Assembly: GCA_017429325.1 (NCBI GenBank)
Contig: JAFRPC010000028.1
Coordinates: 2,376 to 66,375 of the forward strand
From: Oscillospiraceae bacterium
GTDB taxonomy: Bacteria > Bacillota > Clostridia > Oscillospirales > Oscillospiraceae
Reading direction: 5' to 3'
Length of the DNA: 64,000 nucleotides
Part shown: positions 1,604 through 6,997 of the stretch, one piece after another
Layout: each line of letters begins with the position of its first letter
How positions within the stretch are numbered: position 1 is the stretch's first letter
Position numbers and translations under genes: made by a program
The notes under the pieces: model-generated
The model's input: the letters and a program-made list of their open reading frames with translations, nothing else
Database searches by the model: none
What the model was told of the DNA's origin: nothing

Positions 1604-1850
1604 GTGGCGCACACTGTAAGCGCGTTCAGCGCCAGCAGCCCGGTGGGCTGCTGCGGGTAGTCGCGTAGAGCTTTGCTCGAAGCGACATGCCATGCCCTTT
1701 GGCGGCATCGCCGCTACAGGGAAAGGCGGGCAGATTGCCCGCGCTACGGACGAGGGCCGATGTGGGCATACTTCGTGACTCTTCGAGTTCGGCCCCTACG
1801 GAGCTCTCCCCTGACCGATTTGCTTCCTCTTTGTTTACAGCGGCGCAAAA
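1604..1850. repeat. Intergenic repeat element, long copy (B), downstream of the Fic module, same orientation as copy A
   Basis: It has the same head (gtggcgcacactgt), the same 45-nt core (1725-1769) and the same tail blocks as 78-208. Extra sequence is inserted between the blocks. Confidence 0.8.
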
Positions 1851-2182: not shown

Positions 2183-2230
2183 GCAAAAACCACCGACGGC
2201 GGAGCCCCTTTGATACGGGGCCCCGCCGTC
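2183..2230 (-). terminator. Intrinsic terminator after the RtcB operon
   Basis: A 13-bp GC-rich stem with one mismatch spans 2195-2230. On the minus strand it is followed by TTTTTG (plus-strand aaaaa at 2185-2189). Confidence 0.7.
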
Positions 2231-2258
2231 AGCGGTACTCTTTGTTTCTGTGATGCAA

Positions 2259-2528
2259 TTACGGAGCGCTTTGGGTAAGGGATTCAGAAAAAGAATCTCG
2301 TTTTCGCACTTGCTCCATCAGAGCTTCCATCTTGGGCAACATTACGATATCGTCCAGCGCCGCCTCCATCAGCAGGACAGCGGCCTGCTTCAGCCAAACC
2401 AGCAGCTGCTCCGTGATGATCGCGCGGAAGGGGATGCGATGCGGGATCCCGTCGTAGACGAAATAGATACAGATCCGTCCGTCTCCCACGAGCCAGCGTC
2501 CGTAGGTCTGAAGGTCCTTCTGTTCCAA
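2259..2528 (-). CDS. Hypothetical 89-aa protein co-transcribed downstream of rtcB
   Basis: It lies 18 nt after the rtcB stop on the same strand and its composition matches the host. I recognise no motif. It is not archease-like in length or sequence. Confidence 0.55.
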   Translation of the reverse strand: MEQKDLQTYGRWLVGDGRICIYFVYDGIPHRIPFRAIITEQLLVWLKQAAVLLMEAALDDIVMLPKMEALMEQVRKRDSFSESLTQSAP

Positions 2529-2546
2529 CCCATATATTATTTCCGC

Positions 2547-3680
2547 TTATTTCTTCTTTTTGCTCGTAAACCGGTCGCTGGATTTGAAGTTGTAGATCGG
2601 GCGGATCTGCTTCTCGATGCGGACAGTGTCGCCGATGGCGGAGATAATGGTCTGCGGGTCCTTGTAGGCCATGGGGCACTCGTCGAGGGTGTCCTGGCTG
2701 ACGGTGGAGGTATAGATACCCTCCATGCTTTTCTTGAAGGCAGAGAGGGTGAAGCTGCTTTCCGCCTGGCTGCGGCTGAAGAGCCGGCCCGCGCCGTGGG
2801 GTGCGCTCTGGTTCCAGTCGTCGTTCCCCAGACCGACGCAGATCAGGGCGCCGTCCCGCATATTCAGCGGGATCAGCAGGCGCTCGCCTTCCCTTGCGGA
2901 GACCGAGCCCTTCCGCAAAATGCCGTGCTCCAGGTCGATGTAGTTGTGGACGGTGGTGAAGAAGTCCGCCTCGTGGAGCTTCAGACCGTCCAGGATGCAG
3001 TCCTTGATGACCTGCCGGTTGAGGGCCGCGTAGCGCTGCATGATCGCCATGTCGTGCAGATACTTTTCCCGCTCTTCGCCGCGCAGGTACGCCAGCTCGA
3101 AGGGGATCTCGCTCTGGGCTCTGCCGCCGACGCTTTCATAGGCCAGCTTCTGATAATGCTCCGCCACCTGCAGACCGAGGTTCCGGCTGCCGGTGTGGAT
3201 CACAAGATAGAGATTGCCCTCCTCGTCCCGGTCCACCTCAATGAAATGGTTCCCGCCGCCCAGGGTGCCGACGCTCTCCGCGGCCCGCCGGGTATCGATC
3301 TGCCCGAAGCATTCCAGCTCGGAAAGGTCGATCCGGCCGCTGTTGCGGTGGGGCTTCTCCCGCACGTCTCTGCCGTGGGGGATGCTTTTGCCGATGAACG
3401 AATCCAGGGCAGGCAGGTTGACGCGCTTTTCCTTCAGAAGGACCACGTCCATGCCGCAGCCGATGTCCACGCCCACCAGGTTCGGGACCACGTACTCGCC
3501 GACGGTCATGGTCGTGCCGATGGTGCAGCCCTTCCCCGTGTGGACGTCCGGCATGATGCGGATCTTGCTGCCTGCGGCAAAGGGCTGGTCGCAGAGCGCC
3601 TGGATCTGCCCGATGGCCGAAGCCTCGATCTCGTCCGAATAGACGATTGCGTTGGCGTAAACGCCGTTGATTTCTATCAT
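2547..3680 (-). CDS. rtcB: RNA-splicing ligase RtcB (3'-phosphate/5'-OH RNA ligase)
   Basis: Full-length RtcB hallmarks are present: PDVHTGKGCTIG, GGGNHFIE, HTGSRNLG, APHGAGR. Confidence 0.95.
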   Translation of the reverse strand: MIEINGVYANAIVYSDEIEASAIGQIQALCDQPFAAGSKIRIMPDVHTGKGCTIGTTMTVGEYVVPNLVGVDIGCGMDVVLLKEKRVNLPALDSFIGKSIPHGRDVREKPHRNSGRIDLSELECFGQIDTRRAAESVGTLGGGNHFIEVDRDEEGNLYLVIHTGSRNLGLQVAEHYQKLAYESVGGRAQSEIPFELAYLRGEEREKYLHDMAIMQRYAALNRQVIKDCILDGLKLHEADFFTTVHNYIDLEHGILRKGSVSAREGERLLIPLNMRDGALICVGLGNDDWNQSAPHGAGRLFSRSQAESSFTLSAFKKSMEGIYTSTVSQDTLDECPMAYKDPQTIISAIGDTVRIEKQIRPIYNFKSSDRFTSKKKK

Positions 3681-3794
3681 CAGATTATCACCATTGCTCG
3701 TTCCGCTTTACAGCTAAGCATATACTTCTGTCGTAAAGAAAAAATAGAATCCATCAGAAATAAGCAACTCAAGAAGCTTTACAAATTGATAGAC

Positions 3795-5030
3795 CTAGAA
3801 GGCCTTAAACGCAAGATAGAAAGCAACCAACAAATGTTTTTCTTCATCGCTGATACTCTCTCGGGAAGGATGCATAACTTTATTGCGTATATTATTCAGC
3901 TTTACAAACTTACTATTAAATTGACGTTTGCTTTCGAAAAGGGTCCTTATGCTTTTTAGTTTTTGATTAGACCAATTATGTGATAAGAATTTCCTATAAT
4001 GGCAAATATATGCGTTCTCCCAAGAAGGAACACCGTCTACTGTGATTTCAATTAGTACATCTTGTGGAACAATAAAATCTGAGGAGGTATCGACCAAGTG
4101 TTTTAAGTGCTTTTCGAGCGCAACCATCAGGGATTCTGGCGTAGCATAACGAAATAGTTCTTCAGATTTCTGAGTTCTAAATCGAAAAGAAAAACTTCCA
4201 AGCTTAATACTATCTCCATCAACAATAGATATTTCTCCGCTACTGGCATCAATTAGATTTTCGTTGACAGATATTTCTTTTGGACCGCGCCTATGTCCTT
4301 TCAAAGATCTTATCTTCCATGTTTCCTCCGGCAGTGCAGAATAAGAAAACTCAACATTCTTTGTGTATAGACCTTTAGGAACATCCCAAATCGCTAAAGA
4401 GATATCTGCTTTGCTGCCCACTGTAATCCTTGCGCTGTTGGAGAAAGGGATAAAACTGGGCTTTTTGAGAATCTTTTCAGATCCCACTTTTATGCACTCT
4501 AACCCAATTAGCAATTCTTCCTCCGATAAGGTTCTGGAATACCATTCTGGAACCGGGTAAGTATCTGAGCGATCGTTATGTTTTCTTTTGACAGCACCTT
4601 CTAAATCAATTAACGTCGTAAAATCATTATGATAACTGACCAATTGAGCACATGGCAATGCAGGAAGCACTAATCTAATTCCAGCTTTTTGTATTTCTGA
4701 ACCTATAGATAAAACTAGTTTGTCCCGAGAAATCAAATAAATAATAGCTTCACAATCTGAAGCAATGATTTCCTCAATAAATCTTCCAGCCCATACACCA
4801 CAAAGGATATCGGCCTGATTGGGAGATGAGCCTGCCTTAAGACAGACCACATCCATTTGTGGCTCAAGCGATAGGAAGAATTCTTTGAAAGACTTTAGAC
4901 TTCCTTCTTCTTTTGCTGCAATAACTGCTTTAGTCATTTCTCCGTTACAAAACATTTCTTTCAATCCAAAGAAATGAGCTCTTATGATGCCAGTTATTGA
5001 GTCTCCATCAATTATGAAAAACGATTTCAT
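3795..5030 (-). CDS. Multidomain protein with an N-terminal NYN/PIN-like domain, a central FHA-like beta-sandwich and a C-terminal HEPN domain (Rx4H); putative RNase
   Basis: The gene is markedly AT-rich inside GC-rich flanks. N-terminus: FFIIDGDSITG ... IIYLISRDKLV ... AGIRLVL, a NYN/LabA-like acidic pattern. Middle: ITVGSKADISL ... ISVNENLI ... IVDGDSIKLGSFSFRF, an FHA-like pattern that lacks the canonical R/S/H pThr residues. C-terminus: NNIRNKVMH, i.e. R-x4-H at 3870-3887. I chose the start at 5030 (MKSFF) because a GGAG lies upstream. Confidence 0.6.
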   Translation of the reverse strand: MKSFFIIDGDSITGIIRAHFFGLKEMFCNGEMTKAVIAAKEEGSLKSFKEFFLSLEPQMDVVCLKAGSSPNQADILCGVWAGRFIEEIIASDCEAIIYLISRDKLVLSIGSEIQKAGIRLVLPALPCAQLVSYHNDFTTLIDLEGAVKRKHNDRSDTYPVPEWYSRTLSEEELLIGLECIKVGSEKILKKPSFIPFSNSARITVGSKADISLAIWDVPKGLYTKNVEFSYSALPEETWKIRSLKGHRRGPKEISVNENLIDASSGEISIVDGDSIKLGSFSFRFRTQKSEELFRYATPESLMVALEKHLKHLVDTSSDFIVPQDVLIEITVDGVPSWENAYICHYRKFLSHNWSNQKLKSIRTLFESKRQFNSKFVKLNNIRNKVMHPSRESISDEEKHLLVAFYLAFKAF

Positions 5031-5133
5031 ATTATCACTCCAGATCACTTATTTGCCTTGGGGAATAGAATTGCGTATCGGCGCGAAATCCGATTTCAGG
5101 TGATAAGCAGCCCATGGCATCACTTTCCCGCAA

Positions 5134-5880
<747 letters not shown>

Positions 5881-6040
5881 ACGACTCTGCTTGCCTCCTA
5901 TAGTTTCTTTTTCAACACCAGTCTTTGATTGTTCATCATACGGAAGGACAACAACATGTTTCGCAATCATTCTCTACTACCCCACGAATACCGGTTTATC
6001 GACCTCATTATACCACAGCCAAGCGTGTTAAGCAATGAGA

Positions 6041-6079
6041 AAACCTCTTTTGCCTTGGCTGAACTGACAAAAGAGGTTT
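6041..6079 (-). terminator. Hairpin terminator downstream of the membrane-protein (pseudo)gene
   Basis: A 12-bp perfect stem (aaacctcttttg / caaaagaggttt) has U-rich sequence on both sides. Confidence 0.55.
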
Positions 6080-6140
6080 CTTTGATAGGAAAGAGCGCAC
6101 AAAAGGTACGCATTGCACAGCTCGATAAACCGGTGTCGGA

Positions 6141-6997
6141 TCAATCAAAGACGATTTTGAATAATTCCTCGTCGTCAAGCATTTTGTGTTCCGACCGAAA
6201 GCCGAGCTTTTCGTAGACATGTCTCCCTCTGGCGTTTTCGGGGTCAGTGTAGTCCTCCACGCCTTCCTCGTAGCGGATGGAAACGTCGCCGTATGCAGTG
6301 TCCGCCAGAGAGACCGTGTAAGAATCGTCAAACGGATGCTCCTCGTTATTGCCCATGATATCGGTGCTGTAGACCGGAGGATTCAGCAGGCACAGGGCCG
6401 TTAAAACAACAACGCAAACGGCGCCGATCACTGCGCCAGCGATTCGGATCTTCTTGTTTTCAAAGATGAAAACGGGATAGAGGATCATTCCCGCCGCGCA
6501 GAACAGGACGATCAGGACGTACCGCGGCATGGAAAACTGAAATTTGGAAAAATAGCCGAGGTAAGACTCGCCTGTCAGGGCAATCATCGGAAGCAGGATC
6601 AGATAGCCCCACCATTTATCCATCTTCATATAATAGCCGATGAAGCCCATTGGGAAGCAGAGCAGGGTCCAGATGAACCAGAACTTGTAATATCCGAACA
6701 ACCCCCACCCAAGCTCACTGAAGGCACCTGGATCAGATAAACCAGCGGCTGGCTGATCAGGAAGAACACGAAGCATTTGAGCGCGGCGTCCAGATTGCTC
6801 TTGCTGTTCATGATGATGAGGATCCCAAACAGGATCCAAACCTCGAAGGATACGGCGATCGTATGGAATGAGGTGTAGTGCAGCGCTGGGATGAGCGCCA
6901 TGACCGCGGTAAACACACCGGCAATGACAGCTGCGATGATCAGCCTCGGCCAGGTCAAATCGATCCCGCCGAATCGTTTTTTGATCGTCTTTATCAT
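6141..6997 (-). pseudogene. Frameshifted polytopic membrane protein with a GNAT-like C-terminal tail
   Basis: Two overlapping minus-strand ORFs (6626..6997 and 6141..7007) join into one TM-rich protein if 1 nt is restored near 6732-6738 (...QPLVYLIQVP / FSELGWGLFGYYKFW...). The last ~40 aa (YTDPENARGRHVYEKLGFRSE) look like the end of a GNAT domain. Confidence 0.6.

Follow-up and report, generated by a model that had tools for sequence, protein, structure and literature searches.

Does a predicted RNase gene that lies directly upstream of an RNA ligase gene form with it a module of RNA damage and repair, or have the two come together by accident? The question is raised by a stretch of 64,000 nucleotides (nt) from a metagenome-assembled genome (MAG) of a rumen Oscillospiraceae bacterium (contig JAFRPC010000028.1; this whole stretch is hereafter called the window), in which an AT-rich gene for a protein of 411 amino acids (aa) is followed on the same strand by rtcB, by an 89-aa open reading frame (ORF) and by a terminator. 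A first-pass annotation had described in the 411-aa protein an NYN/PIN-like N-terminus, a central FHA-like β-sandwich and a C-terminal HEPN domain, and had joined the three genes into a damage-and-repair module. In this work we have analyzed the protein, its relatives and the surroundings of both the nuclease and the ligase genes. The three-gene module is not supported, since rtcB accompanies none of the other family members compared, the 89-aa ORF is a gene remnant, and rtcB has partners of its own in neighbourhoods that are repeatedly swapped. We consider that the NYN-FHA-HEPN gene encodes, with a probability of about 0.6, a horizontally acquired, stand-alone, sensor-gated dual RNase of the abortive-infection or toxin type, a reading based on sequence comparison and predicted structure; its adjacency to rtcB seems to be fortuitous, a product of a hot spot of gene shuffling, and does not look like a dedicated module.

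Domain architecture of the 411-aa protein

The C-terminal domain was assigned by profile comparison. The family alignment, compared by hhalign with nine proteins positive for PF18731 (Pfam HEPN_Swt1), gave 99.5% and E 1.6e-22; the proteins that match only residues 320-405 of the family profile are Pfam HEPN_Swt1 proteins, several of them above the gathering score, and the family member P0043 scores 27.6 bits against PF18731 (gathering score 27.5). In the family and the related proteins E306 is kept in 66/66, R382 in 65/65, N383 in 60/65 and H387 in 63/64, and the model of the domain is all-helical with a predicted local distance difference test score (pLDDT) of 94.9. With this profile match and its essentially invariant Glu, Arg and His, the R-x4-H HEPN domain of the first-pass annotation can be placed in the Swt1 clade, and to judge from these residues it looks catalytically competent.

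The NYN/PIN-like reading of the N-terminus was likewise supported, by an hhalign comparison of the family with Pfam NYN-positive proteins (98.9%, E 4e-17, columns 3-132) and by conserved Asp residues. Proteins that match only the N-terminal residues 5-150 of the family profile are Pfam NYN proteins; P0067 has a Pfam NYN score of 32 bits (gathering score 24.2), and the family profile also matches P0064. The acidic positions are D8 (35/35), D/E10 (30/35), D74 (32/36) and D103 (33/37), accompanied by S101 in 34/37 and by Asn at position 11 in 20/35 members, and the motifs FFIIDGDS and LISRDKLV read in the first pass are both present in the 411-aa protein. The family consensus D-x-(D/E)-N ... A-D ... 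S-x-D-K follows the NYN pattern except for its last Asp, the second Asp of the classical SGDSDF motif being Lys in this family. The model shows alternating beta-alpha elements at pLDDT about 80-89, and its BFVD matches include an NYN domain protein and a LabA-like protein (probability 1.0, E about 1e-2, target-normalized TM-score (TMt) 0.37-0.57), alongside generic Rossmann-like matches, SLOG domains among them. A cyclic-oligonucleotide sensor, suggested by Foldseek matches to the Cdn1 CARF domain and to Csm6, was rejected as a generic Rossmann-like likeness, the NYN profile evidence being much stronger.

Between the two predicted nuclease domains the AlphaFold2 model of the protein (pLDDT 76.5 overall, mostly 80-93 in the domains) contains a β-sandwich that Foldseek matched to the FHA domains of OdhI, GarA, DgcB and KIF1A with E 6e-5 to 1e-3 and TMt 0.71-0.76 (OdhI 8p5x_G, E 5.9e-5, TMt 0.73; GarA 7rj3, TMt 0.71; DgcB 6hc1, TMt 0.76). 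One family member, P0036, has a weak precomputed Pfam FHA match, and the terminal strands of the pattern GD.I.lG.f.F.F are common to the domain and the FHA readers. These proteins (GarA/OdhI, DgcB, KIF1A) read phosphothreonine (pThr); they share the β-sandwich fold with the family, in which the pThr residues are replaced by RS..G.RR. G205 is kept in 53/54 members, whereas the pThr-binding Arg at the next position is restricted to 9/54, the window protein having Ser there, and in place of the canonical 'StNG' loop there is a conserved R241-S242-x-x-G245-x-R247-R248, which with W215 and Y222 makes up a new surface of strong conservation. The structural matches and the family tallies bear out the earlier description of an FHA sandwich that lacks the canonical pThr-binding Arg/Ser/His: the fold is FHA, and the ligand-binding chemistry predicted from the residues is new.

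Distribution of the family and reuse of the FHA-like domain

An exhaustive hidden Markov model search of 1.84 billion representative proteins gave 75 matches, about 40 of them full-length; a word search of 5.8 billion sequences gave four, and a word-indexed search with the family alignment added one protein. No member was found in 185,579 GTDB species-representative genomes, in IMG/VR, or, by tblastn, in phage and plasmid collections. Matches to a xylanase and to WDR5, obtained by phmmer against the PDB, were discarded as chance. At a family identity of 21-50% the catalytic and signature residues are strongly conserved. The first-pass remark that no named defence system was recognised holds (PADLOC-DB v2 returned 0 families), and in the literature searched we found no description either of the NYN-FHA-HEPN fusion or of the re-tooled FHA fold as a shared module, both of which are also absent from defence-gene models.

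The FHA-like domain occurs in other combinations. It stands with HEPN and without NYN in P0003, P0010, P0018, P0024, P0060 and others (N-terminal to HEPN in P0060, of 229 aa), it is fused, with its RS.KG.R signature, to a TIR domain in P0056 (465 aa), and it is combined with a PIN7-like domain in P0055. Since a shared domain with interchangeable effectors is typical of sensor-effector immune proteins, the FHA-like domain may be read as a sensor or gate.

Foreign composition and genomic context

The GC content (in 300-nt windows) is 0.35-0.41 across 3601-5100, 0.60-0.65 in the rtcB stretch (2551-3600) and 0.63-0.68 in the yjeF_N stretch (5101-5850). The shifts are placed near 3690 and 5050-5100, which confirms the AT-richness and the breakpoints (3690 and 5050) reported before, as the sequence also confirms the gaps of 114 and 18 nt on the two sides of rtcB, the position of the RNKVMH motif and the terminator (Table 1). 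The low-GC tract consists of the NYN-FHA-HEPN gene and its 3′ spacer and reaches the rtcB start codon; its 4001-5000 portion (0.387) is the sole 1-kb bin below 0.50 in the 64-kb window. A second, smaller dip (0.43), mostly non-coding, lies at 5851-6150 between yjeF_N and membrane-protein genes. The nuclease gene also has a lower GC content than its flanks in 8/9 other family loci, and this, with the foreign composition here, supports the horizontal acquisition that had been proposed. Around the AT-rich gene the search for target-site duplications and inverted repeats gave only short repeats of chance size, and no tRNA gene, Rfam match or integrase marking an element was found. The ORF opens at an ATG with GGAG 9 nt upstream (a GTG at 5048 is unlikely as the start codon, because homologues begin at the same MKxxxIID); it is undamaged, and at least 22 contigs from several samples carry it in identical form.

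Contexts were compared at 10 loci of other family members. None contains rtcB (0/10), and there is no conserved small partner or antitoxin ORF upstream of the family members, the small ORFs being mutually unrelated. At one locus (L106) a type IIG restriction-modification enzyme overlaps the family gene by 4 nt and a Schlafen/AlbA_2 gene is present too; a PDDEXK_4 neighbour matches the PADLOC candidate PDC-S26 (L011, 3e-19), and a NOV_C nuclease neighbour matches PD-T4-1 and PDC-S36 (L100). A CoiA-like nuclease lies near one family member, an MqsA-like helix-turn-helix (HTH) protein and a weakly AbiGi-like ORF are found at one locus, and IS66, rve and DDE transposases surround the family gene in L108. 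By this recurrent adjacency to defence, toxin-antitoxin (TA) or mobile genes the family looks like a resident of defence islands. The first-pass annotation had linked its proposal to homologues that neighbour rtcB or defence genes: for rtcB the expectation failed, whereas defence-type genes often do adjoin the homologues.

In the window a Fic toxin with its antitoxin (PDC-S04, 1.6e-48) lies past the terminator, and an RnlA/RnlB pair and a second Fic follow beyond the window edge, which puts the AT-rich gene at the edge of a cluster of at least three toxin-type modules. The RnlA-like toxin (463 aa; L012 15366-17153, in the same genome about 3 kb past the left edge of the window; RNase_H + RnlA_toxin + HEPN_RnaseLS) has an unusual N-terminal Cauli_VI/RNase H extension and is followed by RnlB and then by the second, longer Fic. 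Two direct repeats of ~100 nt (93-189 and 1709-1825, plus strand) bracket the Fic toxin/antitoxin pair (342-1581) in the window. They match over 61 nt at 93% and 37 nt at 89%, with an identical 45-nt core, occur in only two copies in the window and fold somewhat better than shuffles (z = -2.3); they could be the boundaries of a mobile TA cassette or a repeated regulatory/terminator element.

Table 1 Features of the nuclease-rtcB locus in window coordinates
Feature	Position	Strand	Basis
AT-rich gene for the 411-aa NYN-FHA-HEPN protein	3795..5030	(-)	ORF, GC; GenBank MBQ6160046.1 'hypothetical protein', Oscillospiraceae MAG
Predicted NYN (PIN-like) domain, aa 1-125; acidic D8, D10, D74, D103	4656..5030	(-)	Profile comparison, residue tallies
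Low-confidence linker, about aa 126-165	4536..4655	(-)	pLDDT <50 at residues 126-158; poorly conserved
Divergent FHA-like β-sandwich, about aa 166-287; G205, W215, Y222, R241-S242, G245, R247-R248 conserved	4170..4535	(-)	
Predicted Swt1/Abi2-clade HEPN domain, aa 288-411; E306, R382-N383-x3-H387	3798..4169	(-)	
R-N-K-V-M-H, predicted Rx4H catalytic motif	3870..3887	(-)	
AT-rich 114-nt spacer between nuclease gene and rtcB	3681..3794	(-)	
rtcB, intact RNA ligase gene	2547..3680	(-)	Pfam + PHROG matches, catalytic motifs, homology boundaries
89-aa ORF, 3′ remnant of an Xre-family HTH regulator gene	2259..2528	(-)	
Strong intrinsic terminator ending the co-oriented gene run	2189..2236	(-)	20-bp stem, then T-run
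yjeF_N (NAD(P)H-hydrate epimerase-like), GC-rich upstream neighbour, outside the proposed module	5134..5970	(-)	Pfam 1.7e-31

The rtcB gene, its neighbours and a possible nuclease-repair pair

The ligase gene is intact. It matches Pfam PF01139 (7.6e-63) and a PHROG, and its motifs DIGCG, GNHF, HTGSR and HGAGR, with the Cys and His residues including the His that accepts GMP, align with those of P. horikoshii RtcB; by these motifs the enzyme is catalytically intact. The nuclease gene and rtcB are co-oriented, no terminator-like site was found on the minus strand of the spacer between them, and the run ends at a single strong terminator; the two genes are probably co-transcribed here.

These features favour a lineage-restricted pair in which RtcB would reseal the breaks made by HEPN, providing either immunity by repair, the ligase being the antidote of a toxin, or a dormancy that can be reversed once infection has been aborted. 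The products of metal-independent HEPN RNases carry 2′,3′-cyclic-phosphate and 5′-OH ends, which are the substrates of RtcB, and the chemistry of the two would be complementary. The induction of Salmonella rtcBA by tRNA halves with cyclic-phosphate ends (PMC7790460, PMC9879122) speaks for the same reading. The arrangement also resembles the Rtc system (RtcR-RtcA-RtcB) and the phage T4 Pnkp/Rnl1 response to PrrC in that an RNA ligase goes with a predicted RNase making cyclic-phosphate/5′-OH breaks, but RtcA and RtcR are both missing here, and relatives pair rtcB with other genes: a WYL/WCX regulator (in 13 + 9 of 160 rtcB loci), a small basic protein adjoining rtcB (12 + 11 loci; window copy at 1835-2032) and, as the third recurrent neighbour, a DUF2779/Cas4-like gene. 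None of the 160 loci contains a member of the NYN-FHA-HEPN family (0/160), the nuclease-rtcB linkage being unique to this lineage, and together with the missing rtcB at the other family loci this stands against a pair. The same loci were searched for an empty site, in which yjeF_N would be followed at once by rtcB or by the intact HTH gene, and none of them has the flanks of the window. Where RtcB is 91-94% identical to that of the window, DNA homology covers only the rtcB ORF (2547-3680), and the nuclease gene, yjeF_N, the HTH gene and Fic are all missing. The nuclease gene and rtcB are moreover more than 20 GC points apart, which implies separate histories.

The slot upstream of rtcB bears on the pair in both directions. 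The 900 bp upstream of rtcB are lower in GC than rtcB by at least 0.16 in 7/11 loci with RtcB of at least 80% identity, and in the window, while 57/490 background windows (about 12%) show a GC drop of at least 0.12; the repeated filling of the slot with foreign low-GC genes in the closest clade favours a pair, and so does the one slot gene that is related to RNA repair, a LigT-type 2H phosphoesterase. The occupants are, however, mutually unrelated and mostly not RNases: besides the phosphoesterase they comprise an HSDR_N nuclease, a Cas3-HD remnant fused to the tail of another gene, an APH kinase, an alpha/beta-hydrolase and two unknown families. Because of this heterogeneity a hot spot of recombination or insertion fits the slot better than a specific nuclease-repair pairing.

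The 89-aa ORF, described in the first pass as unrecognisable and counted as a part of the module, falls into a cluster (identity of 90% or more) with Xre-family HTH regulators of 176 aa, of which it covers residues 91-176. It is 84-95% identical to its full-length relatives, the HTH half has gone, and no more than about 30 nt separate the breakpoint from the rtcB stop codon. From these alignments it is a remnant left by the joining of the rtcB segment at this site and not a third component, which counts further against a dedicated module. We therefore regard a damage-and-repair pair as unlikely, and the adjacency of the two genes as probably a product of the hot spot.

Several further observations concern rtcB itself. 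Members of its clade (at least 80% identity) keep a GC content of about 0.59-0.62 even in genomes with a local background of 0.48-0.54 (L020, L022, L115 and others); since the GC stays apart from the background and homology ends at the ORF borders, these comparisons suggest that rtcB itself moves horizontally among these Clostridia. An operon-like layout recurs in Clostridia from the rumen and the human gut, in which a WYL/WCX regulator is followed by one or more variable low-GC genes, by rtcB and by the gene for a DUF2779/Cas4-like 500-aa protein (L020, L022, L023, L113 and L115 for the part upstream of rtcB; L114, L115, L119 and L032 for the part downstream), and a WYL regulator may control RNA repair in these organisms instead of RtcR. 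The small basic neighbour encoded in the window (65 aa, very basic, MEKFIPYEKLSKKKQREL...NPVTRK, minus strand) stands directly beside rtcB in 23/160 loci of diverse Clostridia, with other copies at L022 7390-7524, L064 7206-7343, L090 7206-7382, L140 7808-7954 and elsewhere; it has no Pfam or NCBIfam match and may be an unrecognised RtcB-associated factor.

The two unknown slot families have no match in Pfam, PADLOC or NCBIfam and are unrelated to the NYN-FHA-HEPN family. The first, unannotated and low in GC, of ~240 aa and with the motif SYGQAQKWVNMT.KY ... HVP.D ... W..W, is found next to rtcB in four lineages, in one of them as two tandem copies (L022 5277-6008, L113 1681-2415, L115 7300-8004 and 6541-6999, L120 2358-3194). 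The second, also low in GC and with the motifs PIYD.YA ... DRALWVYGH, lies directly upstream of rtcB (L023 4941-5756, L021 265-609, L114 6829-8013); in L114 the 93 residues at its C-terminus, which are 99% identical to L021, form an in-frame fusion with an N-terminal Cas3 HD/helicase fragment, to be explained either by a scar of recombination or by a chimeric assembly. The LigT-type 2H phosphoesterase gene (2′-5′ RNA ligase superfamily, 2.9e-13) lies directly upstream of an rtcB whose product is 91% identical to that of the window (L110 412-966), and makes a more conventional RNA-repair pairing.

Weighing the stand-alone RNase against the remaining readings

The defence-type reading of the NYN-FHA-HEPN gene is favoured because the domains are modular, the gene is mobile, the family is sparse, its neighbours are of defence type, there is no conserved partner, and single-protein precedents exist. 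Several findings weigh against it. The contexts of several members include ordinary genes (LysR, a hydrolase, YitT), which makes the association with defence-type genes moderate, and most family contigs are short, so that the contexts are incomplete. The 411-aa protein of the window has no match at threshold in Pfam, PADLOC, NCBIfam or PHROGs. A partial degeneracy of the window protein is possible, for its subclade has Ser instead of Asn at the DxxN position of the NYN domain, and H225, the His of the FHA SxxH motif, kept in 36/55 members, is Asn in it. Foldseek of the HEPN model against the PDB gave no significant match (best E 2.4), although the best candidates by geometry were HEPN proteins, 4nqf, Csm6 (query-normalized TM-score 0.50-0.55) and HepS; for this reason the HEPN call relies on the profiles and the motif.

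That the gene is a selfish element of the addiction or toxin kind, or a functionless passenger in decay left by a mobile element, would account for the foreign GC content, for the truncated regulator beside rtcB, for the TA-module region and for the transposases of L108. We hold it to be very unlikely: the ORF is intact and unchanged on its many contigs, the catalytic and signature residues have been kept in a divergent family, the gene is flanked by no repeats, tRNA gene or integrase, and no conserved antitoxin-like partner goes with it. Least probable of all is a cellular enzyme of RNA processing or quality control, a bacterial analogue of Swt1 acting with RtcB in routine RNA metabolism, which has in its favour the architecture of a PIN-like domain with a Swt1-clade HEPN (PMC3710099) and the adjoining RNA ligase gene but against it the extremely sparse and patchy distribution (none in the species representatives), the foreign composition in almost every locus, the island and transposon contexts, and the fact that the HEPN of Swt1 is an inactive dyad (PMC3710099) while a single HEPN with an intact Rx4H is present here.

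A working model and its relation to known systems

HEPN RNases are usually dimers that unite two Rx4-6H motifs and stay inactive until triggered. If the NYN-FHA-HEPN protein is a stand-alone sensor-gated RNase, its FHA-like domain would sense and gate, the putative trigger being a phage protein, a phospho-ligand or a nucleic-acid end, and binding of the trigger would release or dimerise the HEPN domains and so create a composite Rx4H site. HEPN would then cut host or phage RNA (tRNA, rRNA, mRNA), leaving 2′,3′-cyclic-phosphate and 5′-OH ends, the NYN domain may add a second, metal-dependent RNase or an RNA-binding activity, and as a result translation would stop and phage replication would abort. 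The gene would have landed in the hot spot, immediately on the upstream side of a mobile rtcB cassette and at the margin of a TA island; the family as a whole appears to be independent of RtcB.

That a trigger bound by the FHA-like domain licenses HEPN cleavage is proposed by analogy with HepS, which opens upon binding a phage tail-tip protein (PMC13043305), and with DS-11, whose defence needs the CBS domain and the HEPN catalytic residues (PMC13092281). DS-11 (DefensePredictor, Science 2026), a single-protein CBS + HEPN anti-phage system, likewise has a ligand or signal domain upstream of a C-terminal HEPN in one polypeptide, and aa 343-404 of the window protein weakly match positions 244-301 of the 305 in the NCBIfam model DS11_antiphage at 17.9 bits (cut-off 260); the sensor is a CBS domain there and an FHA-like sandwich here, the NYN domain is additional here, and the system described here is predicted from sequence. 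HepS (HEPN-solo abortive-infection anticodon nuclease of the Gifsy-1 prophage, Nature 2026, PDB 9oij) is a stand-alone HEPN held inactive till a trigger protein binds, with a likeness at the catalytic helix, LNxIRNKxxH, that is not statistically significant (E 0.46 and E 4.6). It is a prophage-encoded, HEPN-only tetramer of 212 aa, whereas the HEPN domain described here shares its chain with FHA-like and NYN domains, and no relatives turned up in phage collections.

Eukaryotic Swt1 (Anantharaman et al. 2013, PMC3710099) likewise carries a PIN-like nuclease N-terminal to Swt1-clade HEPN, but there a classical PIN is combined with two inactive HEPN domains, and here an NYN-type domain and an inserted FHA-like domain precede a single HEPN whose E...Rx4H is intact. 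In bacteria, the Swt1-clade fusions described to date involve AAA+, TPR, transmembrane and HTH regions, not FHA or NYN (PMC3710099; Pfam PF18731). A single-protein HEPN effector with a sensor domain is already a known kind.

Significance

Single-protein nucleases that join a sensor to HEPN (HepS, DS-11, ApeA) are coming to be seen as a large class of anti-phage effectors, in which the recognition of infection is the key question. The family analyzed here offers a type of sensor not yet described among them, an FHA fold with an Arg-rich signature in place of the pThr residues that is reused with HEPN, with NYN and HEPN, and with TIR, and this modularity makes the question of the trigger directly testable. 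Being missing from Pfam, PADLOC, NCBIfam and the species-representative genomes, the family is invisible to current annotation pipelines.

It is conceivable, though in our estimate unlikely, that RtcB is in these Clostridia the fixed repair anchor of a hypervariable slot which gathers RNA-damaging effectors, the NYN-FHA-HEPN protein among them, and that co-expression with RtcB makes the cleavage by this protein reversible; when infected or stressed, a cell would then enter translation arrest and could later be resuscitated by ligation, an abortive infection with a built-in undo. In the same reading the divergent FHA-like domain, also found with TIR, would represent a class of trigger sensor new to prokaryotic immunity. 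The mobile rtcB cassette at its hot spot in rumen and gut Clostridia bears on the distribution of RNA-repair genes and on the question whether these interact with RNA-targeting conflict systems.

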